A DNA stretch of 64,000 nucleotides from contig OZ237735.1 of NCBI GenBank assembly GCA_965178125.1, forward strand, positions 2,666,001-2,730,000, given 5' to 3'. This DNA comes from Bilabrum cf. latius. Taxonomy: Eukaryota. Each line of letters starts with the position of its first letter. Positions within the stretch are counted from its first letter, which is position 1. The notes under the pieces are model-generated. The model saw only the letters and a program-made list of their open reading frames with translations, ran no database searches and was not told the DNA's origin. Below are positions 3,411-38,517 of the stretch, piece by piece. The position numbers and the translations under genes were made by a program.

Positions 3411-3927
3411 GGTCAATTACGGGCTTGTATCTTGCAGATGCTCGCGAAGTAGCTGACTCCTTCACGGACAAGGCGCCGCGCAATGCTCCGGATCCGGACT
3501 GATTCCAGGTTCCGCTGCAGATTGGGCTGTGAAGATTGATATAGAGTAAATGAACGAGAATCTCGCACAGATTCACAACGAACTTCTGACTGCTCACTTG
3601 GAGCACCGTTCGGGGGAACGAAGGCACACGAGGCAGCGCCACCATCCTGTTGCGCGAGGTGGATGGGCGTCGCCACTGGGCGAGCAACGGGGTCGCGATT
3701 TGCGACTGGCTCTGCTGTCCGGTCACCGGGGAGGCACCATTGCTGCACACTTTACGCCCTGAACGAGCGCGGGCAGCACCATGCACGACAAAGCATGCTG
3801 ATTGCACACAACAATCATTCGCTGCGGCAGGATCCCATGTACCCGGAGCCAGAATCACACCAAACAGATTCGTGGGTCCTGGCAGATTGCTCCGGAGAAA
3901 AACAATGGTCAGATAAAGCCGATTGTC

Positions 3928-8502: not shown

Positions 8503-8618
8503 CGCGAGGTGATCATGGAGGCGAGCTGATATATTAACTTTTTAGCTCTGTTCATGCTATTGCCCATTTTAAATGCCTCCCATCGAGAGAGGCTGCTACA
8601 CGGAGCCCACCCATCGTG

Positions 8619-11162: not shown

Positions 11163-11922
11163 ATGTTCTTTTCGGTAAGACTTAATCATGAGTATTTATG
11201 AACTGGTACCAGCAAGATAATTTTCAATTTTGTGGTTTGTGTATTTGCCTACTCGATCGAGTGCAGCTGCAACTTCGACGAAGCATCCAGTTGCACCCCA
11301 AGTACCTAGGCAAGAATCTGAAGACGACTGTAGCAGACCAGCTGAAGTAGGAGACTGTTGGTAGGCTGGTTGATGGCGTCGGCTACGTTGTCATAGTTTT
11401 GGATGTGGAAGAAGGCGACGTTGGCAGCATCGACCCCCTCACAGGGTTCGTCAAGTTCGACGTTGAGTATCGAGCGATCATGTTTCGGCCATTTACCAAG
11501 GAAGTCCTGGATGTGGTGGTCAGCACGGTGGCCTCTGATGGCTTCTTTGCGATGGCGGGGCCTCAGGAAGTGTTCGTGTACAGAGCGGTAAGGTTGCGTG
11601 CACACACGCCTTCCGCACTGCCAAGTCACAGCAAGCTAGCAGCATCATGCTTGTTATTGCCCCTGCTCGTTCCTCGCAGCACATTCCGGAGGAGTACGTC
11701 TTCAATGCAGATGAGCAGTCGTGGGTGTCGTCCAAGTCGGGCGCTGCTGTGAAGAGCGGGAGCACGGTGCGGGTTAGGCTAGGGTCCTCGGAGGTGAAGA
11801 ACTCCAGGAAAGAATCAGGGTGCATGGCTAGCATCCACGGGGCATTTCTAGGCCCCGTGGAAGAGAGCTCGGACGATCTCGGAGCTGCGATGGGCGGAGC
11901 TGGTGACGGGTTTGCTTCCTGA
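11163..11922 (+). CDS. RPB7: RNA polymerase II subunit RPB7, ~191 aa; exons 11163-11174, 11267-11587, 11680-11922
   Basis: MFFS|LQLRRSIQLHPKYLGKNLKTTVADQLK[TAG]ETVG..YRAIMFRPF..EVLD..GFFAMAGP..|HIPEEYVF..FLGPV. Two 92-nt GT-AG introns (11175-11266, 11588-11679). In-frame TAG at 11348-11350; the gene ends on TGA. Confidence 0.92.
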
Positions 11923-12023: not shown

Positions 12024-15000
12024 TCAACCCCAGCGCCTGTCCCCCGCACCAACCCCGAACCCGCCCCTATCCCCCCCGACGGGCCTATCGTCCCTGCGCC
12101 CCGATGCCTCCACGGCCCCCGACCCTCCCCGCTCAACAGGGGCATCCCGGCTGGCCAGACCACCGAATCCTGGGTGCTCGCTGGACGCCATGCCCCTCCC
12201 AATGGCCCCGCTCGAGCCCCCGAAGCGATCCATGGACCCCGCAGAAGCAGACCCGTCCCGCACACGACCTGCAGAGCCGCCTGCCACATCACCGGTGTCC
12301 AACACAGGAGGCCTGATAGGCCGTATTGGCTGCAGACGCACCGGCTGCGTCACGCTGCGGCCCCCTTCCTCCCCCAACCAGCCCCTTCGATCCTCCGTAT
12401 CCCGCCGACCTAGGCCTACACCTTCTGGTTCACCTCCTCGGCTGCCCCCCGCACCCGGGACCTAACCCCGGTGTTGGTCGTCACCAGCTCCAGCCCCAGT
12501 GTTCGCGCCGACCCCTGCTGCAGGGGGCAGTAGCCTCTCGTGCTCCCCTCGCAGCACGTCCGGATGCACCACCAGCGGCACGCAGGCTGCCCCGTCGGCG
12601 GCCTCGAGCAGGGCACGAAGCACCAGCATCACACGAGCCACGCCGTCCAGCAGCTGTCTGGACAGCGACGCGCTCGAATCCTCGCCCAGCTCCCGAGCAC
12701 CATCTCTTGCGCCAACTGCTCCCCCGCGCCGACCGGCCCCCGCGCGACTGGCTGCCCCCTTGTCCATGCCCAGCACCCGGCGGACCAGGTCCTCGACCGT
12801 GCGGCTGGCACTGCCACCAACACCGTCAAGCACTGCCTTAAGCAAGTCCACCGGCCGCCGCCGAAGCCGGTCAAGTGCCGATGGGAAGCGCCGCAGCCGA
12901 ACCAGGGGCAGCTGGCCGCCGCCCGTATCTGCACCGCCTGGCGTTGTGGGCGACGATGACCCACCTTCGGCGTGATCCGCCCTGCGACTACTGACGTCCC
13001 TTTCACCAGAGATGGTGCCGAATCGGCCTGGGGTGGCAGCCCCCGAAGTCGACGCAGGGCCAGTAGCACTGCTGTCACCGCCCCCGCCGGTCCAAGCCAG
13101 GATAGAGACGTATGCTTGCTGCAGGGCAGGGACGTTCCTCGGAGTGAGCTGCTGGAAGACAGGCTCGAAGCTGAACTGCACCTCCACCTGGTCCACGCTC
13201 CACTGGGGCACGCCCGGCTGGCCCGAAGAAGGGTAGTAGTCGGGGCTCATGGGACCCAACGGTGTGGATGCAACCCGCATCGGTGAGACAGGGGATTGTG
13301 CGTCGGCGGCAGCCAGTCCTGCGATTGCCTCGTCTCTGGCTCCGGCGTCCTGCCACAGCCTGGTGAGGACGGCAGCAGGCGCGTGTGAGTCCACGGCCAC
13401 GGAGGACCACCGTGAGGTGAACACGTTGTCCAGCGATCGAGTCGACATGGAGTTGCCATCCATGCCGCCGTAGGAGCCGCCCGCTCCTCTCCCGGCAGAG
13501 CTGATCGAGCCGTCGTCGAGAGAAAAGAACACGTTCACCAGGCCAACGCTGGCTTGTGCCTGCCGACGCACCACTGCACACGAGTCTGGTGTTATGCTGG
13601 GTGCGCCACCGCTGCGTCCCCCTGCCGCCGCATCGTCAAAGAGCTGCGACCCGAGCACCACTGCATGGTCGGCCTATACCAGCAAAGAGAACCCCCTTGG
13701 CTCAGAGGCCCGGAGCACCAGGCTGTGCACCCTCAGTCTGACCGTGCCCTGCTGCGTGGCATGCGCGGGGACGAGCAAGGGCTGCTGTAGCAGCGCCTGG
13801 TAGGAAGATATGGAGCCTGCGGGCACGGCAGGAGGTGAGCCCGAGGGGTCATCGAGACCCTAGCCCTGGCCGTGGTCACGCTGCTGCCCGCCTGCCATGA
13901 CCCGGAGGCCAAAGGGCTCGCGGCCAACAGACGGCGGGGCAAACTAATGATGTGCCCCCGGAATGTGATTGGCACCTGTACTTCCTGGAGACTGTGCTGG
14001 CCCGCGCGAGTCCCATGCCCCCCTGGGGCTGGACGCACCGAATGGCCCGGCAAACTGAGGCCCAGCGCGACCACCCTGGCTGGCGTACTGCTGTCCGCTG
14101 TAGGAGGCGTACGGGTCTGGCCTGCTGTACGGAGGATATCCACCACCGCTATCATACGACGATTGGTAGTAGTGATCACTCTCTGTGGGACCGCCGTACC
14201 CGACAGACCCTTGCCCTGCGTACCCGCGGGGCTCGAAAGGCCCGCTCCCTCCGGGCGGGTATGAGTCGAAGCCACCGCCTGCGCCGTAACCGCGGCCATG
14301 TACGTCCATTGCGCGCTGCTGCGGCGGCATTCCAACGGCTCTGTCGTACCCGAAGCGCGCCTCGTGCCCTGGGCCCATCCCCCGAGGCACCATCGCGCCC
14401 GGGGCGTCCACCGGGAAACCAGCTCCCAGGCCCCCTCCGCGGTACTCCACGCTGCGGCCCCTCCCCTGCGGGTCCGCGGCCGGGTACCTGTCCCAGCCCG
14501 CGCCATAACGTGCTCCATCGCGACGGCCTCCCGAGTGCGGGCTGTCATAGCTAGGGTCTGTCCCGAACCGCCCCGGGTCACCCGTTGCGTTCCCGCCCGA
14601 GTCGCCTCGGTCTCGAGGATCTGCAGCTCCGTGCCTGCCTCGCCGGCCATCGCGAGACCTGGAGCTCGTCTCGGCCCCCCCCTTGCCCCCGCTACCTCTC
14701 CCTCTCCCGCCGGGCTCCTTGCTTCTCCTCGACAAGCAGGCCTCGTGCTTGCGCAGGAACTACGCCAGGCGCGCCTGGCCCGACCGACGGACTGCCTCCA
14801 CGTCCGCTGATACGTGCTCGTTTGCCTCCTGCTGGGCGCGGTTCCACAGCGTGAAGGTATCGCCAAGCACGTCTTGCGGCGACAAGATCTGCTCCACGCG
14901 GCCCTTCACGCGAGACACGTCCCCTTCCACTCGCAGTGCCACAGGCAGCACCGGCTGCCTCAGCATGTCGTCGAGCCCTGTCTAGCCCGAGCTGCCCTGC

Positions 15001-18000
15001 CCCAGCGCAAGGGGACCCGAGAGAGGCCGCGCCCATGGGAATGCGTCGCACACCCGGCCCGCGTCAGAGGGACGCCACCCCCAAAGTGCGTCATCGCCCT
15101 CCTTCTCACCCTCGTGCTCGGTGTCATCACCACCCTCTACTGCGGCCTTTGCTCGGGCAGAGGACCGCAGCAGCCGCACGCCTTCCTGCGCGCTGCACTC
15201 CAGCCCCTCTATGTCCAGTGAGACGGGCGGGTGCTCGGCGCCTTGCAGACGGGTCCCGAACCGTTGCGACTCGCTGCGCTGCCGCCTCACCGTGCCCTGA
15301 ATGTGAGGCACCGCCAGCACAAAGCGATGCAGGGCGGCAGCGCAGCTCCCCTGCCTCAGCATCTGGGGCACCGAAGGATCCGCCTCCCAGGAGAGCGCAA
15401 GTGCAACACTCTCAGGTACGACTGCGTCCCCCGTAAAGCCAGCCGAGGGGCCTTGGGCAGAGGAAGGCAGCAGCTGCAAGGCGCCCGAAAAAGCAGCCCC
15501 GCTCACGGTTGCGCTGGCAGCCGCGAGCGTCGCGTCTAGCCGAGCGGGGCCTATGAGTCTGACGATCCCCTGCGAGGAGGAGTTTAGGCTGCTTAGCGTG
15601 GCGCGGGCACCGCTCGTGCGGACGCCGGAGCTCTATTCCGCTGCGGCCCGTGCCCTCACGTCAGCCATGTCAGGGTTCTCGAGGGCCATGAGCTCTTCGT
15701 GCACGGGACCCGCGGTCTGCAGCGCCACGCACTGGCCCAGCTCGACTGACCAGGATCGGTGCTCCACCACCTGCAGGGCGGGTAGCAGCTCGGCCCACTC
15801 GTCACTTTCCTCGAGGGTCGAGCTCGCCACGGAGTCCAAATCGTCCACCTCCTGCGCCCCGAACGCGGCAGGATCGTCGAAGCTGAACACGTTGTTGTCT
15901 CCGGTGCCTGACCTGGTGCTGGCCAGCGGCTGCCCCGGCCCAGCCTCGCCCCTGCTCCCGGCTCCAGAGCTCTGCGCCCTCGAGAGCCGGGAGCTCATCG
16001 GACCTCCGTGGCGGTCGGATTGCGGGGACACCCGACGGGGGGAACCCGGGGGCGCGTGGCCTGCAGTGACATCGGCAGCGCTGGTGCCACCCAGCAGAGC
16101 GTGGGAAGCCGCCCTGAGCAGGTGCACCCCCGGGGAGAAGGAGTGTCCAGCACCAGCAGCGCCGTGCCCGAGGGCGCGCCTGCCGCTGTGATGCTGGAAT
16201 GGAGAACCAACGGGCACGATCTGCTGCCCAGCAACTGTGCCGGAGCCGCTTCCGGTTCCTCCGCCAGAGTTATCAGCACCGGCAGCAGTGTGTGCGCTGG
16301 TCGCGCCCGCCGCCTGCCAGTGCTCGCTCGAATGATCATCGCCTTGACCAGACTGCGGACCATTTTGCTGCTCCCAACCGCTCGCCTGGCTTGCTGCCCC
16401 TGCGGCCACGCCAATCGATCGGCTCCATCCAAGCACAAGCCTGAGGACGGGGGCAATATTGTCGCGACTCACCCCGACCAGCACGCCATCAGCACCCATC
16501 CGCCCAGCCACGCGCACGCCCACATCCCCGCTGAGCAGCCGCAGCCGGCCGAGAGCCTCCTCGTCCTCAAGCACAAGCGCGTCCTCGAGCCCGCTGGGTC
16601 CGCGTGTGACGCCCAGACGCATGCCGGAGAGCCGGGCCTGCGCGATGGGCTGAGAGCGGACCATGACGTCTGCCACGCCTGGAGTCATCCGCTGCACTGA
16701 AAGCACGACCTTCGATACGACTGCGTCTGCGGTGACCATAAGCCTGCCAGCGATGCTTCGCGCGGCAGATTGCTTTAGAGCGACACGGCCTAGGACATCA
16801 GAGCCACTGGTCACGAGATGCCTGGGCGAGAGCCCCTGCGTTGCTGCTTGCTCATCGTCCTCGTCATCCGGGAAGAGCTGTTGCGGACGACCGAGGCGGA
16901 TTTCAATGTGCGCATCCGCAGGTTTCGGCAGCAGCAGGCTTGCGGACACCATGCTGCCCTGTTGAGCCGACATCGATGGACCCAGGCGTGAACTCCCGCC
17001 CGCTCGCTCCCCTCCCGTCCCGCCCTCAATGTCGCCCCAGGAGACATACAGGAGTGAGTCGTCAAGCTGCCCGCCCCCGCGCATGACCTGCTGCACAGAG
17101 AGGCGATCGGGGTGCGGATAGGCACTTCCGCGCCCTCTACCGCTCGAAAAAGTAGAGTCTACAGAGATGTGGCCGTTACCCGGGGTAGATCGACTGAGTG
17201 GTGCCAGAGAGCCCGTCCCACCGCCACCACTGGAACTGGCACTGTCGGATTTGGCGCGGCTAATTCGCAGAGCAATCTGCACTGGTTTCTGCAAGAATAC
17301 CTCTGACACGCTCGGGAATGTGCCCTGCAAACGGGTTCCGTAAATTGCATTCGCCACGGCTTCCTCCAATCCTAGGTCAAACCTCCCGTCGTTTCTTGTC
17401 TACTCCTCTGCATTCGAATTCCCACCCTGGGGTTGCGACCCGCGCTGCGGAGCCCCTTCATCGGCAGGCCCACCGCCATCACCGCGACCTGTCCCAGCTT
17501 CGGATCCAACGTGGGAAGGCTGCCCTGCGACGCCGTCCGGCACAGAGCTGCCAGAGTGCCTAGACCGCTATCCAGCGTGGGCTCCTTGCTTCAGAGCCTG
17601 CGAGGCAGCACCTGCTTCACGAGCTGCAAGCAGCACAAAGGCAAGCAGCTGTGGCGTCACCTGCGTGCCTGCCAGCTCCATGTGCACAGACAGGCGCTGC
17701 GCCTGGGACGCATGGCCGCCGCTGCGCATCAGACTCGCGAGTGCATCCATCATGGGATCCGTTCTAGAGAGATCCAGGCCGCGCTTGGACCGGCTGCTTC
17801 GCTGCCTTCGCGCCCTGCTTCTTTTCTTCTCAATGTTGGCAGACTGCAGCGCTCGCATCACTGCGTTCACCCTCCGACTCACCGCTCGGTCGTCCTCTGA
17901 GCGACTGCTGCCTCTCTATCGCTTGCTGTCGCTATCGGACGAGTCACCCTCATCATCGCTAGTGCTTGTGCCGCTTCTGCTGCCCCCGTCGCTGTCGCTG

Positions 18001-21000
18001 TCCCACGACACCAAGGCCACCGGCCCAGCGGTGAACCCTCCCCACATGCTCCCGATGCCCACCTCGGGCAGCTGCACTGCGAATGACACCGCATCGGCTA
18101 TGCTCTAGGCCGAGGCTCCGGTAGAAAGGGGGCGGAGCCGCAGCGATCGTGCGATTGAGGCACCGCCCCACTTGTCTGCGTCTCCCGGTGTGGGCCTGGC
18201 TCGATCGGCACCCCCTCTGCCTTGGCGCGGTACTGCGGCCGGCCCCGAAGACGAGGCATCTGGGCTACCGTCGAGACCGCCGTCCCCTGCCGTTGTTCCA
18301 GCTTGATCCCGGGCCTCGAAGAAATCTAGAACCGACACGCGGCGCTCCAGCAGCAGCAGCCTGCCAGCCTGCACCCGCACGCTGCTTCTCGTGACCAGCA
18401 GCCAGCCCGCCGAGTCAGCCGCCGGCCCGGTCCCCACTTCCTCCTCGTCGTCTGAGCTCAACACGCCGTCTTCGTCGATTCCAGCGACAAGCTCATCCAC
18501 CCCTGGGAACATGCCGTCCTCGCCGACTCCCAGCGGCTCATCATCGGGATCCGTGCGCTTGCTCACAGCACCTACTGCCTGCCTGCGCGTCGAAATTCCG
18601 GGCGAAGACTTGCCGCCACGGACTGCTTGGTCCGGCTGCTCACGTGCTCGACCACCTGACTCGCTGGGCTTGAACTGCCCCACTACCTCGTCCACCAGGA
18701 ATCGCACCGGTTCTAGCATAGAGGGTGCTAGGCTGCCCATGCGTGTGCGGCCGTGCCCGTGCCCCTTGCGAGGAGGTGGCTAGGGCCCAGGAGCCTCGCC
18801 ACCTTGGTTGCCTGCGCTGGGGCTCGGTACCCTGTGACCTGGACCCACAGCAGATGCGCGACTACCGGCAGCTGAGCGTCGGTCGCTCCTTGAGTCCGCA
18901 TCGGAACCTCCAGCATGACCAGACCGAGCATAAAGCGGCCTGTCTACAAACTCTCGCACGCTTTCCCCAAAATTCCAGGTATGGAGCAGGCCGGTGATGT
19001 GTCGCGCCGAACGAGGGGTACATATTAATCTAGTGGCCAGCACATCCATGGCCAGATCCACGCCGAGCTGCCCGCTGTGAGTCCGGGCGTGAGTCGGCTA
19101 GCGATGAGGGGCCACAGAACTGGCTCGATCGTTACCTAGAGAGTTTGATTCTGGCAGCTCTCCGGACGCAGTGGCCGAGCCCACGCCAGGGCTGGCATGA
19201 CTGACAGCCCGTGAGAGCGAGCCAGTCAAGCTGTGATCGGCCGATGAGCTGCCGCCGTCCCCCTCATGCCCGACGAGCGCCGCCACGGCTGCACTCGGCA
19301 CCCACAGGGAGGCATCGGCCTGAGGGCACCACTCCTCTAGCGCCAGTAGAGGCGCCATGTCTTCAGTCTGCCAGTCCAACCGCCTGCTGCCTATCTCAGT
19401 ACCGTCTCTCTCGGCAAGAGCCGCACGCAGCGTGTTGGCCACCAGGCCAATCCCTCTGAACGCCATGTTCTCCTGCTCATCGTCGTCCGCAGCTCCGTCC
19501 GCACCGTTGAAATCGAGCTGCAGCAGCTTGCGTACTCTATGCTAAATCTGCGCAAGGCCGTCTTTGACGTTGTTGGACCCAGTCGAAGAGCCCGGTCCGG
19601 CTGCAGCGTGGTCTGGGACGGCAGGGCCAGACTTGAGGGGGGAGACCCTGCGGCTTCGTTCCGACGGACCGTCGCGCCGCTGGCGACGCTGGAGCCTAGA
19701 CCTCAGGGACAGGCCTCTACCTCGCCCCCTGCTGCTACCTACGCGGTCCACTAGTACATCCTCAAGCAGTCCGCGCCCGAGTAGGGAGAGCGGCGTCACC
19801 TGCGCTGTAACTTGCGCCGAAATCTGGCTCAGTCGTGCTGAGGCGCCGCCGACCACCACGCGCCGGGACGCAGAGTCTCCAGGAGCCGCGACGGAGCTAC
19901 CTGACATGCCGTTGATTTCGCTCTCATTTCCTGCTTCACCGCCACCCATGGCCGATAGCACCACGCCCACAGTTGCAATGCCAACGCGAACTTCAGCGAC
20001 TGACATGCGGGGGGTGATGGAACCGAAAAGGGCGCGAGAGGCATCTGACAGCACCGCCGCTTGCCCAGAACGTCGGGTCTTCACACCCAGGCTCTCCATG
20101 GCTGCCTCTACCAGCTCTTGCTCTCGCGCAAGAGCATCTGCGGGCTCCTCCAACATCATGAGGCTGCCCAGGTGCCGCGCACTAGACCGCATCGAGGGTG
20201 CGTGGATGGCTCTCGAGGTCTCGCGCGCCAGAGTGGAGATACGGCGTGGTACGCTGCCGCGAACAGACGCCCGTGCCTTGCGCGAACCCGGCCTTGGCTT
20301 GGCCGGCGATCGTGTCGTGCGCCGAGTGAGGCTGGAGCGCAGCGGCTGGCTGATTCCGGCCTCGGAGCCCCTAGCGCCCCGAGTGCCGTCTGCAGACGCT
20401 TCGTGGGAATAGTACGGCAGGGCCAGGGAGGCCTCCCGCACGGCAACGAGGCACGCGGTCTTGGTCGTCACGGAAGACGCGCGCGAGAAGGCAGAGCGCA
20501 GCTGCACCTGCAGCTCGTTGGCAGCCTGCTCCCCGATGGCAGCGATGTCCCGGTCAAGGCTCGCAGTGCTAGTAGATCGCCGCCGCATCGGGAGCTCGCG
20601 GGAGTCCATGCTGGCGTCGCTCATCGTGCGAGACCTGCCTCGGCTGCGCCCGTCCATCGGCAGACGCGCCAGCGGCATACCCGACGGCGTCAGCCCATCC
20701 GGCCGCATTGTCTCGCTGGTGGCAGCAGGACTGCCACGCAGCAGTCCGCCCCCCCTCGAGCCCAGCTTGCTAAACACGCGATTGAACGATCTCTGGAAGG
20801 CGTTAACCACACGAAATAGAGCCTAGCCAGCACCAGGAAGCACCAACGCGTGCACGCGAGCCAGATCCACCAGCACGGCGTTGTCGGCATCGCTGCTGTC
20901 GCTGACGAGCAATCGAGCCAGTCGGCGCATAGCTGGGATGTGCGACCCGCTGCTGCTAGACACAGGGGCAGCTGCTGCTGCAGATTTCTGCTGCTGCTGG

Positions 21001-27000: not shown

Positions 27001-30000
27001 ACATCAAGGTTTAAGCTGTGAACGGATGCCGCTACCCGCTAGGACAGCTCGCCCGCGGAGCCAGCGATCGGTGTGGTTCTGTGCACAAGCTGCACGCCCT
27101 CCGCTGCTAGCGTCGAGACAGTTGGGACCTCCAGCGGGATGATGCAATGCATGTTTGGTTGAGGCATTGCATCTCCACCTCTCAACGGTACAGCGGCGTT
27201 CGATCCAAGCGATTCGATCGAAGTAGATGCTTGGTTTGGAGCAGGGCATACGTGCTCTTTTCGAACCGTGTGCCGCAGCACCTCGCCTTCGGCGATAGCA
27301 CGAGTCTGCAGCTCAAACCGTTCTACCAACAATGCTTGTGCAGACACACCTGCAGTGACAGCCCGAGACGAATGCAGCGACGTTTGATCTGGTTTCTCAG
27401 CTGACCCAGCTCTGCCCTGGATCGGCACCTCTGGTATTGATGCGAAGGCCTCTTGCACAGCAAAGGAGACGTGTTTTGTGGAGGAATGGAGCGCGCTGGC
27501 CGCCCCGGCAACTGCAAGCACACCCTCAGGCGACACTCCGACCGACACCAAGCCGGCATGCGCGATGCGAGAATGAGAGAGTTTCTGCTAGGAAGTCAGC
27601 CGAGGTGCCACAACTCGTGCCATGGGTGTTGCGGCAGAAGCTTGGACCTACCGCACCGCAGCGCGCAGCAGCTGCTCCGCAGCGTAGTGCGCAGGGGCCT
27701 GGAACCCAAACCCATCCTCGCTCAATTCTGAGCTTCGTGCCATGGTCTCGCTGCCTAAGCGCCAAATGCTTCTTTCAGCTGTGCCGTACTCGGCAGCGGC
27801 TGCAGTCCCTGCGTTCTCTGCTGACGGCAGCACCAGGTGCCTGCGGTCCTGCGGCATAGCCGGCAGCGCCAGCGGTGACCAAGGAGACACTGCCAACAGG
27901 GAGCGCGACCAGAGCGACGGCTTGGTGGCCAGAGCCAGCCGGCTCATGCTGACTGTGGCGCTGGGTCGAGGCGGGGGTGGCTTCTGGTGCGCGCGTACAG
28001 ACTGGACCACGAACAGCGAGTTGCTTGTTGGTGCAGTTCTCAAGACCCGGGAAACAAATCGGTTCGGATCAGTGGCTCTAGCCGTGGGTACGATCACAGG
28101 GGGAAGGCGAGATTTCGTCCGGGACTACAGTGTGACTCTGCCTGCCTCTGAGTCAACAAGCGACGGCGGGATGCTGACAGTATCCCCTGCAGTTTGGACC
28201 TCCGTGCCAGGCACACGCACCTGCTGACCTGCGAGCACTCTGTTGTAGTCCGGAGTCTACCGAATGTAACCTGAGGCTGCGCTGCCAGTTTGGCTACCTC
28301 CTGCCTCCGATCCGTCCGGTGAGCTGCCTGCCACGATACCGTCCGACTGACTGTCCTCAGGATCATCGAAATCCTCAAAATCCTCGAAATCCTCGAAATC
28401 CTCCCACTCCTGCTCATCGGTGCCGGCACCGTACGCACCGTCATCTCCAAGCCGCTCAACAATTCCCGCCGCGCGAGCCTCGTCTGGCCCAACGCTGCCC
28501 AACTCCCGGATCGCAGGCATGTTGCCAATGGCTTGCGCAAACCTGTCGTGGGGCGTTTGCCCCGCCGGTGAGGTAGTCTGCCCCGGAGGTGTCGTTCGTT
28601 TAATCTGCTGAGCCCGCTTGCCTGGCCACTGAGCGACGACTCGCTCCGCTGGTGAGATCGTACCCACTCTGGCTGTTGCATGCGGCAGCTCACCGGCCGC
28701 ATCAGTAGAATTTCCACGGCTTGGCGCCAAGTCCACTGCGCTGGGTCCACTCATTGACAAAAGCAGGTCCTTCGATTGAGATGCAGCCCAGTTCGCCGCA
28801 GCTGCTGCATTCAGGCGTTTCACCGCCTTTGCTGCGCGAGCCCTACGCGCTGACAGGGATTTCAGCTTGGAGAGCACTGAGCCGATGGGCCTCTGCGTGC
28901 GAGGGAGGCCATCGGCCGGCACGGAGTGAATCTGTCCGATTCGGGGTACTCGCCGCAGCGGCAGCCGCTCGGTCGGCGCGCCATCTGCAGTGCACCACTC
29001 CTCCCGTAGCTACAGAAGTGGGACGTGGACGGACGCAAGGCTCGCGCAAGCCAAGGCAAGTGACCCGTGAAAGGCCTCTTCGGAACCGTATGAATCGAAT
29101 GAGGCCTAGGCAACCAGCCTGTCCATGGCCTGCTGCACGGCAGCATCCAACGGTGGTTCCCTGTGCGGCTGGGATTCATGCTTCATGGAGGAATCGGGGC
29201 CTCCACGATCGACATACGAAGACGGCCCGGGCAAGAAGCCCTGGCCTGACGAGTAAATCGACGTCGAGGCCGCGTTGGTGCTATGCCTGGAATCGTGACC
29301 CCCGCTGCCCTGACGACTGCTGTAGTCCGTCCCACTGCCCGCACCATGCCTGTGATGCTCCCTGGCAGGATGACTAGTGAGCTGAAGCATGTTGAGAACT
29401 GCCCCGACTGCTTGTATCCGCAGCGCGGTGTCGCAGCCCTTGGGCAGCCTGTGGTGGTTCGACACCAGCTGTCCCCCGAGGGCACCCGAGGCCACTGCTA
29501 GGAACTGCTTTCCTCCGTCGAGCCGCAGAAGGCCTCCAAGAGATGCCACCCTTGCCTAGATTCTGAAAGCAGCCCGCCGGGCCGATTCATTTGCAAGCGC
29601 AACTGGAAGAGACTGCTCGCTAGGGGCGCTGGGCGACCGCAAGGCGCTGTGCAACCGAGCCGGCTTGCTGTCTTGCTTGTAGCACGCTTCGTCCACACGC
29701 GCCCGCACCTGGAGCTGAACCTGCGGGGCCAGCTGCCACGGACTTACGCGCTAGCAGCTGAACGCAACGCTGGGCTCGAAGGCTAGTCCGCGCACAGGTC
29801 GGGCAAAGCGGCTCCCAGCGACGGGCGCGGCACACGGCCGCATTCTCTGCATCAGCGACGCGGATGCCTCTGGCATGCCGTCTATCCTGGACCCGATGGT
29901 TTCAACCAATTCGATCTCCTCCGAGGCACCCCACCGCACGGAGCCTCCAAGTCGGCGAAACACGGCGTCCTGCGTGTCGGGCTGCACCGCGATGCTTCCA

Positions 30001-33000
30001 CCAGTCACTGACCAGCGCACAGCTCGCAAGTCGTCGTGGTGCATCCAGTGGTCTCGATCGGCGCTGGATCCGGTGCGCTGTGCGGCAGCAGCCTTGCTTG
30101 CAAGCGATCTGGCTGCCGCAACTGTTGGGATGCTGTGGGTCCGACCGTCGCTCGGTTGGGGTAGCTGCTAGACGCTCATGCTTGGAGGTAGGGATACTGT
30201 GAAGCTGCTCTTGGCCACAGCGTGCGGCACCAGTTCCTCCTCAAGGCAATCGCACCTATTCATGGACACGGGGACACCGGTCGTGCGAATGCCAGATCGA
30301 GCCCCGGCTAGGTCACCGGTACCCAGCGGCAGTCTGCAGGCAGCTCGCCACACGCGACGGATTTCGTACACGGTCACGTGCACAGGCTCTATTGCCGAGA
30401 CGGAGAACAGGGGCAGCTACACCTACATTGATCCAGCTGCTTGGAAGCCGTCTCTTGCGAATACGGTTGTAGCCGGCTGTCGCACGCGCTGCCCGCCGCT
30501 CGTCCCATCCAAGCTATCATCGCAAGCCACGGCAGGCACCACGCCCGTGCAGCAATCCACCCGTGCAATAGCACGGCTGGCATCGCTCCCCGCAGCCTTG
30601 CCCGGGCTACCAGCCGCGGAATTACTGCCACCGCCGAGTGGAATGCCCGAGACAGCCGGCTGGGTGAGTCCCCCAGATCTGGTGGAAGGGTCCAGCACAG
30701 GGGAGCGGTATGTTCTCCCGCAATGCGAGACCACCACAACCACACCGGCTGTTTGCTGGTCCACTGCGACCAGTTCTCCCGGAGAAAAATCCGCCAGGAC
30801 GAGCCTCACGGTGTCAAAGTGGTCTTCGGAGGAGAGCGCGGACCTGCCGGCATGATCCAGCTAGGCCACTGCGCTCAAGCCTGCCACGCTGCAGCCGCAA
30901 GCGGACCGGTACGCACTCTCAGACCCAGCCGCAGACGACGAGCTTACCTTCCCAGGGTCCAGAATGTGCGGCTCCCACCCGCCGGATGCGCCGGGCTGTG
31001 CCCCGAGCGTCGGCCCCGAGGTTCCGGTCGATGAGGCACTGTCCGACCTGCCGTGCGTCCCTGGCCCTGGTGGACCAGGGCTGCTGGCATCGAGATCATC
31101 GGTGGGGCTGCTATCACCGCCCCCGAACCACCAAAATCCTCGGTTTTCTGCCTTGGGCTTATCCTTTCCTTTGGCGATCGCAGCCAAGGTTCCAAGAAGC
31201 CCCGCCTGCTTGAGCCAGTCGGTCCACATGTCTGCTGCCTGGATCGAGCCACCCGCCGGGCTGCTGCCAGTGGCCACCGACATCCCAGTATCTGACAATT
31301 CGACGGAGGGAGACAGCTGCTGCACAATTGAACTCAGACTACTGGAGGGGCCCTTTCGGCGCACGCTCGCCAGGGCCCCGCCAAGCATCCAGTGCAAGGG
31401 GTGCCGCGGCGACTCTGGCCCTCCAATAGCCCTGGAGCTGTTGCCGGCCAGTGGTCGAGGTACCGACTCTGGGGACATGATCAGGTCTTCGAGGTTGACC
31501 TGCAGGGCGCCAATCGGAGCCTTTCGTGAGGCAGCCGAGACCCTGGCGTCGGCCTGCCTCCAAGTCATGAGCGCCTGCAGCACAGTTGCGACCTGCGGGG
31601 AGGTGACCATAGCCCTCACTTGGCCCACGTCCAACGTGTACGAGGTAGAGCTGCAGACCATGACGTCGGCTCCAGTCCAGGCCTATTGACCACTTCTACG
31701 CTATGGACCAGCAGACATCACAGATGCAGGAGAGTACTAAAACATAGCGTCCAAGCCAATGGAAGAGATGAACAACCCCTGGCTATGCAGTGCGCCGGTT
31801 TCGCGAAGGGCTGCACCATCGGCGCCTGCGAGTGACGCGTGAGTCGCGGACAGCAGATCAAGCGTGGCATCTTCTGACCCCAGCTGATTGCTGTTCGCCA
31901 GTGCTGCGCCAGGTAATCTGGATCCCCGTCTCTGCGGCTTGGATGCCACTCCCGCGCGGCCGTCTGCTGGTGCTGCCTCATGAACGTAGCGAGACCCGCG
32001 GTTGCTGCGCTTCAACCCGTCCCGAGAGCTGTACTGCGCTTGTACGGAAGTATCTCCAACCGTCTCAGACTCGCTGGAGCCTGGAGGAGCCGGAATGGAC
32101 ACTCTGACAGGGTCAGCGCCAAGGCTCAGCTGCACCTGGTCCTGCTGAATTGCGGTGCGGAGGCGGACGGCCCGAGTCCTGAGAACGATCTCAAATCCCC
32201 GGTGCACGGCAGGACCAGGCAATCCGCTCTCGACGAATAGGCGGTTCGACCGCTTTGCCTTGCGCGCCAGGTACCGCCGCTCCGCTCGCGCTGCTGCATC
32301 AGTCCCTCCCGTGTTCGCGCTGCCAGTCCCACTGAGTATCGTCTTGCCCTCCAAAACAGACGTCCCCTCGTCGAGTGCCACGCCCGGGGGCAAATTCGGC
32401 GACAAACCTCCAGCGCTTCGCGCGTTGCTTCGGCCGTCTCGCAGAATGGAGTCGCGCCACAACTGCGGGTTTATGCCACGAGATCGGCGTGACCGCACCG
32501 CCCGCCTGGTGTCGTGCAGCATACCAGAAATGCCGCGGTCGTGGCCTCCAATGCCCCGTCGAAGCAGGCCCTCGCCAGACTTTCTCGAAAGATGCTTCGG
32601 ACCCTGCTCGTCTCCGACATTTTGCATGCTTTCCTGCTTGACGGGGTCCTCGAATGGGACGTCACCCACCTGGTCCCGCACTGGCACCCTCACTTCGAGC
32701 CGATCGAGCTGCACGTTGAACTCATACCTTGTGGGAGACTCGCCGAAAACAGCGCGATGCAGGGTGGACACCCCAGGCAAACTGTGTCCCGAGCCCTCCC
32801 TTCCGAACTGCACTGCTCCGTGCGTGCCTGGTGGCGCTGGGCGAGCCTGAAATACTTCCGAGCTGCATGCTGCCTTCACGTTCCGTCCCTCCCACACAGG
32901 GCCCGCTGTTTCCAGCTCCTACGAGGTGCACTGCAAGGAGGATGACCCGAACAGATTGAAATAGAAATGCTGCAGCCCGGCTATAGTCTCAGCTGTGGCT

Positions 33001-36000
33001 GTAATCGATGGCTTCTGAAGCCGCAGCCCGAGCTTCATGATGTCCTCAGTGTGCAGCTGAGTGCGAGACCCGTACTGGTATCGACCGTGCAGCAGCAATG
33101 AGTCAAAGCATCCAAGTCGCAGCACCAAGCTTCCGAGCCCAGAGGGATCTACAGCAAGCTCAGCCCGGCGAGCGTCGGCCAAGATTGAGGTGGGGTGGTG
33201 GGATGGCAGCGACAGCAGCCAATCGCAAGGCCTGGCACCGCTGCTGTCGGTGCCATTGTGAGACACACCAAGCCGTCCCCTGCTACCTTGCCGGGCAGCA
33301 ATCCCACGGAACCCGTCGGCTTGCACACGCTGCCCAAAACCAGTCCACAGCGGTCTTACCGTTCCGCCCGTCATTCCAATAGATTCGTTCTGCTACACGA
33401 GGGCTTGCAGCCAGTCCGCGTTCCCGCCTGTTTCACCAAGGGCAAAGTCGAAGAGAACGGAACCTTCTGGTGACCCCTGCAGCTGGTCGTCGAATCCCAC
33501 CCTGATGCCGGCAGTCGGAGCCTGGAGCACCGACAGTGCCTCGTGGCTCAGGTCCCCCGGCATGTCGACGACATGGTCCGGCTCTGCGCTGGTGGCTAGC
33601 AGCAGGTTAGGCAACTCAACGCTAGTCAGTGAGCTGTACGGCTTGCTGAATCGGGGTGCCCATGGCCCGCGCTGCATTAGACCTTGTTGCGCGGCTGACA
33701 TCCACGACCGGGTGGCAGGTCGGTTGAAGTCGCGCGAAAGCGACTGAAACAGCGCGATGTCATCCTGACCGAGGTGAAGTGTGGCGTTTGGCAAGCGCAC
33801 TGCCGTCTACATCTTCATTGCAGCGCCACAAATTGGGTATGCCGCAGGAGTTTGCATCGATGTCACCACATCAAGCCCGTCTGCTCGAATCACCGCGGGT
33901 CTGGTCTCGTTGCTCGTAGCGATCCTCACCTGACCTGCTACCACGTGAGTGCGCATCAGACCCGGAGAAGTCTCCAACAGATACAAGTTGCCGGGCTGCA
34001 CCTAGCCAGCCGAAGTGACGGTGCGATCTTTGGCCCCCTAGCCCCCCGCATGCACCTCGACCGGAGATGCCGCCAGTGGTGGGGGCGAGCTCGTGGTCAC
34101 GACTCGGAGCGAAATGCCGTCGACACCGTTGAGCGGCCAAACATCGAGCTGGAGCCACGCTGGTTCGCCACCGGACGCCACGGCCTCTTCCATCGGCCCA
34201 TGCTGCCGCATGCCCTCCAATGCAGCCCTCAGCTATGCAGACAGGGCAGCTGCCTTCCTCCGTAGCTTTTCCTGCAAACTGGCGCCGCCCCGCAGCCCGT
34301 CTGTAGAGCGGGTGTCGTGCTAGCGATTCGCACGGGAGCTGGGAGCAGTACTGGCAGCGGTCCCGCCGCTCCCAGCAGACGGAGCGAAGTCTCGCTCGGG
34401 AGCTGCCTGCGCAAGTGGTCTCCCAACCGACTGCCGCGCTCTGCTCTTGCCAGCTACTGCTGCATCGGAAGCAACTAGGGCATCGTTCCGCTCGCCATAC
34501 CCTGGACCCGCCGCTGTGGCTGCTGCTGCGGAGAGGGAGGATCTGCCGGACACATCGCAAGTGAAAGGTACCCTCAGCTGGATTTTGCCTATGGCCTGTA
34601 CCACGATGCAGCTCGCTGCCGAGCGCAGCAACCGAGCTCGGTTCAGAGGGCCAGACCTGTCGCCATCTGCCGGCTGCCAAGCGCTGATACGGGGTGCATC
34701 TCCGCGACTCGCTGCAAGCCCGTCCACCAGCAGCTGGTGCTCCGACTGGAGGGCGGCTGCACCAGACACGGTGGCGCCCACCCCAGCGGTTTGCTCTCTT
34801 TCCACTGACTCCGCCAGCTTGCGGGCGGCATCCGCGAACGCAAGCGCAGCACCGAAGTCGGTCGCATAGTCCTTCAAGGGGTCAAAGTACGTCTGTAGCC
34901 GCGTTCTCTGGCGATCGTGCCAGGGGCCGTAGTTCACAGTGACGCCGTCGCCTGGGCTAGCTGCTTCCCGCGCGGCACTCTCAGTCCCAGTGCCAAGGTC
35001 TGCCCTGCTGCCTGACCCAAGGTCGGAGAGCTCGATTACCACAGCTGTTCGGAGCAAGGCCTGAGACGCCATCACGCTGTAACTGCGGGGTACTGCCCTA
35101 TTGCTCGTAGAGTCGGATGCGAACGAGCTCTTGCCGCGGAACAGTTTCTCAAACTGACCATACTCCAGCGGCTAGTCCTCGGCAAAGTACTGCTGGCAGT
35201 ACGTGACCTTCACTGCGGGCGCAGATATCATCGGGGCCTCGGGCCTCAGCGCCGCTGGATTCCCCTCCGAGTACGGTGGCACGGAAGTCAGGTCCCTGCC
35301 TGCCTCTGCGAGCAAGACAGCCCGTCGATCTGAGGACAGGTTGCGGGGGTCATACCCGGTGAGCTCTTGGTCTTGCGCCGCGCCGGTTCCGGTTCCGCCC
35401 CCCTGTCTTTGTCTACCAGCAGCGCCGCGACGGCTAGATCCGCTTGCAGAGCTACCAATGGGCTGCCTACCGCTTCGGTCTGCGTCCAACTCGCGATCGC
35501 TAGTCATGCCAGACTTCCCGTTGGAAGCATCCTCAACATCCCCGTTCTCTCCCAATACCGACTCTTCCTGGCTGCCGTGGAAACTCTGCTCGTCATCGCT
35601 GTCACTCGCGTCAGGATCATTGTCGTCTTGACTTCCGTCACGCTACCCTGCTTTGGTGTCAAGCCCGCGCCTTACTTGCTGGTAGGTCTTGGTCGGAGCG
35701 TTTGTGTAGAGCGAGGCAAACCAGGCCGACTCGGGACAGAAGCAGGGTTGCAGCAGGTAAAACAGCCCGCAGAAGCCTTTGCAGCAGCAGTAGCAGTAGC
35801 AGCCGCAGCAACATCGGCAGCAGCAGCTGCAGCAGCATATGAAAGAAATGATGCTTTCCAGTGCCCGCCGCATGGCTTCATCCCCCCGCAGATCAGACCT
35901 CTTGGATGATCCGCCCGAATGCGCACCACTGCCGGGGGCGTCCCCCGTGATGGCAGCCCGAGGCAGAAATCCAGACCCGGCGCTGCGCGTCGGCAGCATC

Positions 36001-38255
36001 TATGCCACCACGCGCGTGAGCCGCGCTGTGACCTGCATGGTACGAACTGCGGGCGGTTGCTCGGGCAAAGACACCTCCTTGAGGGGCCCCTCCTCGTCCC
36101 TTTCCCTGCCCATGCACGGCAGCAGCACCTCCACCCATGTGCGCGTTCTATCGCTAGGCCCTAGACCAGAACCTGGCGCAGCCTGGGGTACAGTTCCAGC
36201 CCTTAATCTTCCAGAGCTGGCCCTGCCCCTTGCCGAAGCATCCTCAGGCTCAAAACCGCTGGGTGCCATGGCGGGGGCCGCTGCCCCTCCACCCACCTTG
36301 CCACTGGTACCACCCACCCCCTGGCCCTCTACAGAGGCGCGCCGATCCTGTGGGTGCGATGCGAACTGCGCGCCTCTAGCTCGATCCCGGGCGAGGAGCC
36401 ACGCGGACCCCGGCGCGACCGTTGGTCGAGCAGCCGCGAAGCTCGAAGCCACCACAGAGTCCCGCCCAGTTTTATCGGGTGCCGTCCTCCCGGAATATGA
36501 ATTCACTGTGCTTGATCGACGATCCCTTGCCCCCCCGATCCTGCTATCCTGTCTCTCCGTGTCACCGGCCTTGGTCGGGCCACTTGCAGCGGCTGCAGCA
36601 CCCCCAAAATCGCCTTTGGTCTGGTCCAGCCCGCCAGCCGGACCTGCTCTCCTGCCCATGCTCTTTCGAGGGTTCCCGCCCCCCAACCGTCCGTCGCTCC
36701 CGCTCGAGGACCCGGTGAGATCAAATGAGTATCCGTGGCGAAACGTCTCCTTGTCCTCCTCGACGTCTCCCCACTCGACCACACCACGGTCGAAGCTTAC
36801 GCGCAGGGCCGCCGGGAGCACGTGCGCCCCCACAGTCACAAATCCTCTGTTGATGTTGATCCTCACAGCCCCCAGGAGGACTGTCCCGTCCGCAGGGACA
36901 CCAGCCTGCCCAAACATGGGTCCTCCCTGCCCGCTATCGTACGGCGCTCCGCCCGCGGCCTAGTCTCTGGCCCTGGGGTGCACCGCCGATTGCACCAGCT
37001 ATGCCACTGTGCGCTCGGCTGCCCGCAGCGCAAACTCGACGTCCTTGCGAGCCACAGCGTCCTGCATCGAATGGGCCCGCGCGTCCACGGCTGACAGCGC
37101 CTCGAGGGAGCCCGCGCGCTGCTTGTGCCTGGGGTGGTGGTCGCTGGAGGACGAGCCACGGCCCGACTGCAGCCGCCGGAGGGGCTGGGTTGTTCGCGCA
37201 GATGAAGCCAGCAGTGCTGCGCGTCCTGATTCTCGAGCCAGGATGTTTCTAGAGCTGCCCAGCGTCGCGGCCGAAGGCATCCTCCCCATGGGGGGGGGCA
37301 CCTTGGCGGGGAGGTCGACAGCGGAGGCGGTGCTGGAGGGCAGGCCAGAGGCGGAGGGGGATGGACCAGGGCTGTGGACCCCTGAGCGTCGTCCTCGGAT
37401 GGACGTATTGATCCCGATAGATCCCGAGGGAGACACTTCGTCGCCTGCTGTTTGCAAGCGCGCCGAGGCCGCAGCAGTCGCAGGGTTTGTGCGAGCCACA
37501 TGGTCTACGCCGCGCTGTGCCGCCTCCACCACGCAAGGGGTGCGAGCCGATGCCTGCGGCTGAGCCTGCCAGTTGGATGTCTCCGCAGTGTTGGCATCCA
37601 AGGATGCACCGACGGCTCGCATCGCTTCCTTTCGAGCGGCGCTCCGCTGCAAGTCCGCGAGCTGCCTCAGCTGCTGATACGCCTTTGTGTTGTTCAAGTG
37701 GTACACCCCTAGGCCATGCACATCTACGTCTAGTCTGGGCAATTCCCTTTCCTATAATATTTTCCCCAATTTCCACCAGCGGAGCCAGAGGACAACTTGC
37801 GCAGCCGATACTATGCTGTCTGCCGACGCCAGCGACACCCCTCGCAATGATAGCATACCCATGAATGGTGCAAATGAGGCGTCACTTATGGACAATACTG
37901 CGAATATGATGAAAAGATACATATGTGTCACCTTACTGCGATTTCAGGCAGTATTCTCGGAGAGACGAAGATATAACTTACTATATCCTGGCATGAATAG
38001 GCTGGCTGCTTTCGCCAAGACCCACCCAAAAGCCCTGGGTAGGACTGTAGCTATCACCGTAAGGATAAATCCTAGTATGATTGTCCAAAGGAATACCATC
38101 CACGGAAACGCGATCGAATCGATACCAAACACCCTCTCCAGAAAAGGAGATTCAACCTCGGATGTGACATTCAGCAAGGCAGAGGCGTTCGATGACAGAT
38201 TACCCCTTTCCTATAAGATTGATATAACTGTCTAGACATTGTCTACAAGCGACAT
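12024..38255 (-). CDS. BLTP1: Bridge-like lipid transfer protein BLTP1 (KIAA1109/Tweek/Csf1/LPD-3 family), ~8715 aa; exons 38255-37982 and 37897-12024
   Basis: N-terminal TM helix (WMVFLWTIILGFILTVIATVL), then LSISDASFAPFMGMLSLRGV..LRWWK..PRLDVDVHGLGVYHLNN..AY resembling the KIAA1109/Csf1 N-terminus. Hallmark VNYGPWHDRQRTRLQTYF lies near 34880-34945, and FSFEPVFQQL near 13160. Intron 37981-37898 (GTAAGT..CGCAG) removes an in-frame TGA. More than 30 consecutive minus-strand ORF fragments share one frame; walking the gaps shows only TAG (~63) until TGA at 12024-12026. Small in-frame introns could be missed. Confidence 0.85.
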
Positions 38256-38517
38256 CCTGCCTGATTGGGCGATTGGAATCATCGCTTCAATATTTGATCT
38301 GCAGTGCAACCCGGAAGTGCCATAGTGTCGTCGGATCTGGGGCCTCCCCGGGGGCCCGGGGGCAGTTATTGAGACCACCAGCTATGCAACGAGTGCATGG
38401 CAGAGCATATACTTGTAAGCTTGAAAACGTATTCATACCTGAGTCTAGCCAAAGCACGCACCCCATGCGCTCAAAGTCGCCTCCCAGTCCGGACCCCCGT
38501 GCTCCGTTCTCTCTGCA

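Follow-up and report, generated by a model that had tools for sequence, protein, structure and literature searches.

The window analysed here, a stretch of 64,000 nucleotides from Bilabrum cf. latius, raises the question of whether the minus strand between positions 38255 and 12024 encodes one protein of some 8,700 residues, and, if so, with which genetic code it is read, to which family it belongs and what accounts for its length. An earlier note had proposed a BLTP1-family protein of ~8,715 aa in which TAG is a sense codon.

A single reading frame in two exons

Extending over positions 12024–37943 of the minus strand is a single frame of 8,639 codons that contains 61 TAG, no TAA and no TGA before its TGA terminator. 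All 61 TAG fall within 37897–12024, the earliest at residue 64, and the earlier count for that interval (about 61 TAG, no TAA or TGA) is correct. The remaining five frames across 12024–37943 carry 11–21 TAA and 82–148 TGA apiece, and the position-specific base composition of the giant frame predicts 39 TAA and 49 TGA where none of either is observed.

At the 5′ end is a short exon 1 (37982..38255, minus strand) with a putative ATG at 38255; it codes for a short stretch at the N terminus together with the membrane anchor. Separating it from exon 2 (12024..37897, minus strand; 25,874 nt, predicted from the DNA to be a single exon, with its TGA stop at 12026–12024) is a predicted 84-nt intron (37898..37981, minus strand; GTAAGT...TTCGCAG, 39% GC) with an in-frame TGA inside. 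Splicing 38255–37982 to 37897–12024 gives a stop-free product of exactly 8,715 aa, matching the length first claimed; starting from an upstream in-frame ATG at 38282, the product would have 8,724 aa. None of four sequencing runs compared with it, out of 12 listed and none recorded as RNA, showed the spliced join. Removal of the intron restores the alignment to a homologue from Cafeteria roenbergensis (FNF28_00696, KAA0171484.1, 945 aa), residues 18–254 of which run without break across the junction opposite residues 21–247 of the giant protein (E = 1e-6). The exon 1 part of the spliced model is thus aligned from residue 21, exon 1 is covered by two DNA relatives (X8 and X10), and a ~90%-identical relative (P0015) shares the same TGA as gene end.

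Upstream is a GH36 α-galactosidase frame (38518..43761, minus strand; 1,747 codons, 8 TAG), the stop of which lies 236 nt ahead of the first candidate ATG and so bounds the giant gene on that side. Downstream is a convergent gene (11190..11922, plus strand, start approximate) that we take, judging its translation by eye, to be RPB7-like; its stop is 101 nt from that of the giant gene.

The frame is conserved at the protein level. In a 43%-identical relative (L009), colinear with exon 2 over frame residues 305–4802, the whole 13-kb frame holds 53 TAG and no TAA or TGA, and differences per codon position of 0.27/0.16/0.63 (1,676 well-aligned columns) indicate purifying selection, bearing out the claim of a long coding frame. 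In two ~91% relatives, 10 of the 10 indels inside the frame preserve it among the indels listed (12 of 62), two of the ten only as an adjacent 2 + 1 pair. For residues 4,800–8,715 every relative is ~90% identical, which makes for a weaker test of selection, and a homologue search with the C-terminal part gave nothing beyond three fragments of one ~90% relative. Standard gene calls are shattered in this clade as a consequence of the TAG recoding; the close database matches are fragments only, of 47–1,258 aa. The giant gene is real and probably unbroken.

TAG as a glutamine codon

The count of stops had been put forward as the strongest support for recoding; the count itself stands, and alignment and tRNA evidence prove more diagnostic. 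TAG occupies 25 of 309 positions opposite Gln and 56 of 7,980 opposite other residues (p = 6e-17), Gln being its sole enriched partner (13% versus ≤3% for others, well-aligned columns). In relatives of >80% identity, 7 of 12 of the protein's own TAG face Gln and the other 5 face non-Gln residues. TAG also occurs within the eRF1, PRP8, GH36 and VPS13 frames, and at other 3-kb loci 6 of 19 are fully open with TAG as sense, against 1 of 19 for each alternative.

Encoded on contig C23 (segment L007, 1488–1562) is a 75-nt tRNA with a CUA anticodon, which has no long variable arm and is followed by a T-run; from the likeness of its arms to those of tRNA-Gln, it presumably has Gln identity. A DNA search with it found no match except itself, and a pattern search for ordinary tRNA-Gln stayed at chance level (64 matches versus 46 in the control). 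The eRF1 and SSF frames end in TAA and the others inspected in TGA, all frames being defined with TAG read through. In eRF1, GTS is kept, TASNIKS is changed to TAVNIKS and YLCDNKF to YMCDSHF. Position 69 of eRF1 is itself a TAG codon; this residue is Leu in the yeast and human proteins and Gln in the eRF1 structure 8ip8, so that a Leu69-to-Gln change is non-diagnostic as a cause of the recoding.

The proposed recoding of TAG to Gln is therefore well supported at the level of sequence by the TAG/Gln exchange, the L009 frame and the tRNA(CUA), and we regard the code as very likely real. The host is probably a bicosoecid-like, Cafeteria-related protist. A literature search found no report of nuclear UAG = Gln in stramenopiles, and that the code is both present in a stramenopile and unpublished is somewhat better than an even bet.

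The N-terminal part is BLTP1-like

By its sequence, the N-terminal part is BLTP1/Tweek-like. Near the N terminus is a predicted transmembrane helix (residues 47–77; 38025..38117, minus strand), the sole Kyte–Doolittle peak above 1.9 in 8,715 aa, which aligns with that of the Cafeteria homologue. Just behind it, the most amphipathic 18-mer (72–89) has a moment of 0.38, at the 90th percentile. Pfam BLTP1_N is the only family matched, at two colinear places: a first groove-like segment (37641..37889, minus strand; weak match to BLTP1_N positions 71–157, E = 0.058, 11.4 bits) and a block with the motif NYGPW..DRQR (34866..34952, minus strand; positions 336–363, E = 7.4e-5, 21 bits). Both are far below the cut-off of 100; inserts fragment the profile match. 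No Pfam match to VPS13_N, VAB or Hobbit was found in nine pieces of the protein; matches to PAS_4, PhyR_sigma2, CYNS_N, JAKMIP_CC3 and KOWx were below cut-off and taken as chance.

The firm family assignment depends on the Cafeteria homologue. In a search of 1.84 billion representatives, no named homologue came up except FNF28_00696 (E = 7.7e-9), which matches in three colinear blocks across residues 21–2504 of the giant protein, the membrane helix included; its residues 390–560 align to 1409–1579 at 31% identity (E = 8e-10). In the ESM Atlas it is placed with BLTP1_N (feature score 0.94, 175/256; TM 0.58), with Hobbit at third rank (0.90, 138 shared features). Because its matches are confined to residues 21–2504 and the NYGPW block is missing from it, the gene model may be incomplete; no longer form was present among 8,000 scored candidates, which the tool rates as weak evidence. 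PDB sequence searches with FNF28_00696 and with segments of the giant protein gave nothing useful.

Structure prediction was applied to two segments spanning 1,400 of the 8,715 residues, both AF2 models having pLDDT <30, a level at which the tool warns that matches may be meaningless. For residues 1357–1856 (32604..34103, minus strand; mean pLDDT 28.5), which contain the block 31% identical to FNF28_00696, Foldseek ranks 1–6 of 350,542 chains were LPD-3 (top, E = 6.9e-4), Atg2 and Vps13, and VIA gave a middling match to Atg2 (Z 7.4, r.m.s.d. 3.0, 91 aligned) and Z 3.7 with LPD-3. The model thus weakly suggests a repeating β-groove fold in the N-terminal half. Further along is a strongly conserved β-rich block (residues ~2447–2665; 30177..30833, minus strand), 63% identical to L009 and weakly matching FNF28_00696 residues 858–905, which may be an accessory domain. 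Pfam and PDB searches gave it no assignment, nor any support for a C2-like reading made by eye.

The C-terminal half

Similarity to BLTP1 at both termini had been set beforehand as a test of the proposed identity; it was found in the N-terminal part, by Pfam, FNF28_00696 and Foldseek, and is not established in the C-terminal one. Pfam searches with 9 long and 11 short pieces gave no match to BLTP1_C, BLTP1_M or Csf1_C in this half, and a fold search with a C-terminal AF2 model (pLDDT 29.9) matched no groove protein. Profile searches of the genome (BLTP1_C, BLTP1_N, TMEM170 and NICE-3, including PF10190 and PF07406) returned no candidates, their controls were silent too, and BLTP1_N was missed even at the giant locus. 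The one lead to C-terminal BLTP1 similarity comes from residues 6695–7949 (14325..18089, minus strand), where the three clusters nearest to a 91%-identical homologue (P0014) in the Atlas are of the BLTP1_C, BLTP1_M and Csf1_C types, with a feature score of 0.87, below the tool's bar of 0.9. Near the C terminus is a candidate amphipathic helix (residues 8432–8449; 12825..12878, minus strand), followed by a Gly/Arg-rich tail; its hydrophobic moment ranks at the 99.6th percentile among all 18-mers of the protein and is the best within the chosen interval 8430–8560.

Origin of the length

Disordered loop inserts seem to account for most of the great length, in keeping with what had been supposed. 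The folded share is ~42%, or ~3,630–3,690 residues by a crude estimate; Pfam BLTP1_N positions 157–336 (179) are stretched across ~900 residues; and segments variable in comparison with L009 are poorer in hydrophobic residues (share 0.21 versus 0.31). Other genes of this genome are also enlarged: PRP8 has ~150 residues where the human protein has ~20, and GH36 is bloated as well. Contig C10 carries a VPS13-like frame of 11,628 codons, next to which the giant gene is not exceptional within its own genome; VPS13_N matches lie on contigs C17, C10 and C7 and not at the giant locus. Given this genome-wide loop inflation and the Plasmodium precedent considered below, the size is less surprising than first supposed.

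Alternative explanations

Two alternatives concern how the gene is expressed. The mature mRNA could be shorter, with some of the loops being stop-free in-frame introns, or the locus could yield two or more transcripts, and there are 29 GTRAG motifs within the frame and a more distant organism (run X5) without some of these segments. Yet the segments skipped in that organism have no splice ends and have other letters between, two being net multiples of three; the one clear intron is AT-rich and holds a stop, whereas exon 2 has few low-GC windows; and L009 retains 4,330 consecutive codons without TAA or TGA, which is not expected of unconstrained introns. We consider this highly improbable. That TAG specifies a residue other than Gln, or is ambiguous (sense within genes and stop at their ends), would fit its under-use (14% of Gln codons in the giant gene, 3% in PRP8) and its position opposite Lys and Trp in GH36, Pro in PRP8 and non-Gln residues in eRF1. 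The exclusive enrichment of Gln opposite TAG, the lack of a long variable arm in the tRNA(CUA), the TGA or TAA at the gene ends inspected and a relative that reads through a TAG 146 codons ahead of the stop, with Glu there, make it extremely improbable.

The other alternatives concern what the protein is. The C-terminal half might be of another or a lineage-specific kind, joined to a BLTP1-type N-terminal part, so that the protein would not be a full-length BLTP1: beyond residue ~2,500 the Pfam and fold searches gave no BLTP1 evidence, and the Cafeteria model ends at the equivalent of that residue, a weak indication. Against such a fusion stand the three Atlas clusters, the absence of a second membrane helix and of other Pfam domains, and the late amphipathic helix candidate, as expected where a groove ends; we judge it very unlikely. 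With the same gene and code, extra β-groove units or large accessory domains could instead make a bridge longer than the ~345 Å of LPD-3. At ~3,650 residues, the folded estimate is 700–1,000 above the smallest complete members of the family, yeast Csf1 (2,958 aa) and Trichomonas Tweek (2,695 aa), and the β-rich block 2447–2665 is conserved without a Pfam or PDB match. However, the same crude method puts the folded part of this genome's VPS13 (6,394 codons) at ~3,500 residues where canonical VPS13 has ~3,100 aa, and its error therefore covers such an excess; blastp of the protein against itself found no internal repeat; and the N-terminal landmarks are spread 2–5-fold with no new units. A longer bridge is thus rather unlikely. 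It is also the unlikely part of a broader proposition, in which a Cafeteria-related stramenopile clade combines an unreported UAG = Gln code with bridges of more groove units than known BLTP1, the 11,628-residue VPS13-like protein being a second case; this we consider distinctly unlikely.

Proposed mechanism and significance

From the open frame, its protein-level conservation, the TAG/Gln exchange, the tRNA gene, the predicted N-terminal membrane helix and the BLTP1-like N-terminal part, all read from DNA, we favour (probability roughly 0.7) a two-exon BLTP1/Tweek/Csf1 orthologue of ~8,715 aa with a roughly standard groove and inflated loops. UAG would be decoded as Gln by the tRNA(CUA), with UAA and UGA remaining stops. 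By analogy with the family, the membrane helix would serve as an ER anchor, and roughly the standard 16–17 β-groove units would form a hydrophobic tunnel of ~35 nm, through which phospholipids would pass in bulk out of the ER, into either the plasma membrane or some other organelle. The surplus of ~4,000–5,000 residues would consist of Gly/Ser/Ala/Arg-rich loops off this rod, part of the genome-wide inflation, leaving the bridge no longer.

If true, this extends BLTP1 to stramenopiles and its known length from ~5,100 to 8,700 aa, and such a protein would be a natural test of loop tolerance in a lipid bridge; were the longer-bridge reading true, wider membrane gaps would be spanned. Nuclear genomes seldom decouple UAG from UAA, and a stramenopile case with its tRNA(CUA), eRF1 and relatives at ~91% and ~43% identity would offer a test of how eRF1 drops UAG and keeps UAA.

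Comparison with known systems

Nuclear codes in which UAG alone is reassigned to Gln (NCBI table 15) are known from Iotanema spirale, Protocruzia tuzeti and two phyllopharyngean ciliate lineages (PMC5304391, PMC11687900), and tRNA-Gln(CUA) was predicted to be the decoder in such codes (Panek et al. 2017). The code proposed here likewise keeps UAA and UGA as stops; unlike those cases, the host is apparently a stramenopile, and the tRNA gene and eRF1 sequence are in hand.

With human BLTP1/KIAA1109, fly Tweek, LPD-3 and yeast Csf1 the giant protein shares one (predicted) membrane helix at the N terminus, an unchanged order of the BLTP1_N motifs, a β-groove-like low-confidence model with LPD-3 as best Foldseek match, and a candidate amphipathic helix near the C terminus. 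It differs in its 8,715 aa, compared with 2,695–5,093 aa across the family (Levine 2022) and 4,022 aa for LPD-3 of C. elegans (PDB 9CAP), in falling far under the Pfam cut-offs, in a C-terminal half that Pfam and fold searches leave unassigned and in needing TAG = Gln. Of the family's partners TMEM170/Intake and Spigot no candidate was found in the genome, by searches whose controls were silent as well. FNF28_00696 shares the colinear blocks over residues 21–2504 and the membrane helix; it is ~30% identical, it covers the same span in 945 aa, 2.6-fold shorter (a ratio that would be too high were exons missing from the model, which lacks the NYGPW block), and no counterpart to the C-terminal part of the giant protein was found. 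Closest in its manner of growth is Plasmodium falciparum PfVPS13L1, also a protist bridge protein enlarged by inserts, which is ~2× its yeast and human counterpart through flexible inserts with the number of groove units unchanged (PMC13036008), but which belongs to the VPS13 family, has 12 units and adaptor domains, and is read with the standard genetic code.

The giant frame and its coding status

On the minus strand of the window, positions 12024–37943 form a frame of 8,639 open codons when TAG is read as sense, containing 61 TAG, no TAA and no TGA before a terminal TGA. Base composition predicts 39 TAA and 49 TGA for this frame, and the remaining five frames across the giant-gene interval carry 11–21 TAA and 82–148 TGA, bearing out the earlier note's description of a long frame interrupted by TAG alone. 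Starting at ATG 38255 (−) and joined to the long exon across an 84-nt GT–AG intron predicted from DNA (37981–37898, −), the gene would encode 8,715 aa; an alternative ATG at 38282 (−) would add nine residues. We infer both the intron and the one-transcript structure from the DNA sequence. The gene is bounded by the stops of a GH36 gene (38518) and of a convergent gene (11922).

Comparison with relatives marks the giant frame as coding, and the gene is real. A metagenome contig (L009, 12,992 nt) from a relative is open end to end in one frame, with 53 TAG and no TAA or TGA, and matches the giant frame in a single colinear block (residues 305–4802, 42.8% identity). Differences at codon positions 1, 2 and 3 are 0.27, 0.16 and 0.63 in well-conserved columns (1,676 of 4,190 aligned columns, local identity ≥0.5). 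Two runs of ~91%-identical DNA, with 4 of 12 runs compared, cover all 30 bins of 18401–38400. Among the 12 rows listed out of 62 for these two runs, all ten indels within the giant frame leave the reading frame intact, two of them by adding up as neighbouring 2-nt and 1-nt changes, and a 1-nt indel lies upstream at 38300. The terminal TGA is shared by a 90% relative; beyond residue 4,800, homologue searches gave only ~90% relatives.

In contigs of a second, more distant relative (run X5), 100–275-nt segments of the gene are missing or replaced (19664–23087 and 27599–27732), with no splice-type ends at these segments. Within the giant frame is an ARAGORN tRNA-Ala call (16201–16274, −) in GC-rich coding DNA, probably a false positive. 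A Cys-rich run (~15 Cys per 25 residues; ~35770–35840, −), kept in L009, could serve in palmitoylation or metal binding, and near the C terminus is a low-complexity stretch of ~220 residues rich in Gly, Tyr, Pro and Gln (~13900–14550, −).

UAG as a probable glutamine codon

As read from its DNA, the genome very probably uses a UAG = Gln code. The proposed recoding of TAG as sense agrees with the L009 alignment, in which TAG stands opposite 25 of 309 Gln and 56 of 7,980 other residues (p = 6e-17), with a tRNA gene and with TAG in other genes (two in eRF1, four in PRP8, eight in GH36, 25 in VPS13). Relatives of >80% identity have Gln opposite 7 of 12 giant-gene TAG, the remaining five being Arg, Gly, Ser, Glu and a gap. 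The tRNA (anticodon CUA, 75 nt, no long variable arm; L007 1488–1562, −, contig C23 at ~907.6 kb), which we take to resemble tRNA-Gln, is single-copy by DNA search; that search returned the gene alone and no parent tRNA. At 19 other 3-kb loci, a non-random sample chosen via tRNA-like patterns, the longest frame per locus has a median of 276 codons when read by the standard code, and of 661, 307 and 409 codons with TAG, TAA or TGA read, respectively. Counting against a plain Gln reading are GH36, in which two of three aligned TAG are opposite Lys and Trp, and PRP8, with one opposite Pro.

The release factor eRF1 (L001, contig C35) carries the altered motifs TAVNIKS (cf. TASNIKS) and YMCDSHF (cf. 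YxCxxxF) and ends in TAA; its in-frame TAG might allow feedback on its own synthesis. One of these TAG is position 69, tied to UAG readthrough by Panek et al. (PMC5304391); because Gln occurs there in another eRF1 structure too, we draw no inference from it.

A probable loop-inflated BLTP1

We regard the giant gene as a loop-inflated BLTP1 with a probability of about 0.7. Pfam returns BLTP1_N alone, through two weak matches in colinear order (one with E = 7.4e-5 and 21 bits against a cut-off of 100, the other with E = 0.058). Among 1.84 billion representatives the sole named homologue is Cafeteria roenbergensis KAA0171484.1, aligning in order with residues 21–247 (spanning the intron), 1409–1579 and 2458–2504. 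One membrane helix is predicted (residues 47–77). For residues 1357–1856 a poor AF2 model (pLDDT 28.5) has a Foldseek top six made up of LPD-3 (E = 6.9e-4), Atg2 and Vps13, with middling VIA-align scores (Z of 7.4 for Atg2 and 3.7 for LPD-3).

The ESM Atlas groups KAA0171484.1 with KIAA1109/BLTP1_N (features 0.94, structure likewise). For a 91% homologue of residues 6695–7949 it gives 0.87, under a bar of 0.9, the nearest three clusters being of BLTP1_C, BLTP1_M and Csf1_C types; family-consistent lists of this kind arise for a third of shuffled proteins too. The C-terminal half has no match in the Pfam search, and a second, poor AF2 model of it has no fold match. Of the similarity that the earlier note looked for at both termini, the N-terminal part thus stands and the C-terminal part is tentative. 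At residues 8432–8449 is a strong amphipathic helix candidate.

The excess length was ascribed mostly to disordered loops, and this is supported: the two BLTP1_N matches, 179 Pfam positions apart, are separated by ~900 residues; the hydrophobic share is 0.21 in segments variable relative to L009, against 0.31; and a mixture estimate, for which the folded and the inserted portions of GH36 and PRP8 served as calibration, puts the folded share at ~42% (3,630–3,690 residues). The same estimate gives ~3,500 folded residues for the genome's VPS13 (6,394 codons, 25 TAG; contig C17, 194922–214106, +). Additional groove units, also suggested, are less likely. The folded estimate exceeds the whole of yeast Csf1 by ~700 residues and therefore leaves room for a few extra β-groove units or accessory domains, an unlikely reading; blastp finds no internal repeats. 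Loop inflation of a BLTP1 remains our preferred account.

Inflation is general in the genome, as seen in GH36, PRP8 and a frame on contig C10. The GH36 α-galactosidase (38518–43761, −), possibly of bacterial origin by its sequence, has a catalytic part close to Geobacillus AgaA (E = 1.6e-179) and spans 1,747 codons against ~730 aa for solved bacterial relatives, with a 600-residue N-terminal low-complexity extension and a ~400-residue insert. PRP8 (2,791 codons) has ~150 residues at a place where human has ~20. Exceeding the giant gene in size is the C10 frame (758252–793138, −; L039–L042), with 11,628 codons, 99 TAG, no TAA or TGA and ~6,200 residues estimated as folded; its beginning weakly matches VPS13_N (E = 1.1e-6), and blastp finds nothing in it that resembles the BLTP1-like protein. 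A frame on contig C7 (340001–354942, −) has at least 4,980 codons and 31 TAG and extends past the stretch examined. In the window, a 1,566-codon frame (3802–8502, +; eight TAG) has no Pfam match; its second half, by eye, presumably resembles the OB-fold telomere protein POT1. The giant size is a symptom of genome-wide bloating, and the UAG = Gln code is the more interesting part.

Lineage of the host

The host is quite probably a bicosoecid or near relative, since Cafeteria supplies the sole named homologue and the mitochondrial contig (C111, L047–L050; 38.4 kb, 24% GC) has UGA = Trp with tRNA-Trp(UCA), as described for Cafeteria and Cafileria (PMC6972860, PMC6723347); this is suggestive and is not a phylogeny. 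Long ORFs of C111 lie on one strand only, all TAA-terminated, and only 10 tRNAs were found. Two 18S types, of 1,802 nt (L025, contig C95) and in a 1,700-nt tandem array (L026/L027, contig C12), differ at 280 positions with 1,411 identities and therefore point to a second eukaryote, probably present in the assembly as C95 at least.

Comparison with known systems

By analogy with the family, the membrane helix would anchor the protein in the ER, β-groove units would form a hydrophobic tunnel and the inserts would loop outward off the rod, with each of the 61 UAG codons presumably decoded by tRNA(CUA). LPD-3 is given as 4,022 aa and 16 units over ~345 Å (bioRxiv 10.1101/2024.06.21.600134), its tunnel carrying phospholipid rows toward the plasma membrane, aided by Intake/TMEM170 and Spigot (10.1101/2024.06.21.600134; 10.1101/2025.04.30.651444). 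Among the open-access papers listed in literature searches, none reports nuclear UAG = Gln in a stramenopile; supplementary eRF1 and code tables may bear on the point. A UAG-only change to Gln, as in this genome, is recorded for Iotanema, Protocruzia tuzeti and two phyllopharyngean lineages (PMC11687900). Family lengths of 2,695–5,093 aa, with all variation ascribed to disordered loops, are given by Levine 2022 (PMC7613979), and PfVPS13L1, also a bridge protein, is likewise doubled in length through inserts (PMC13036008).
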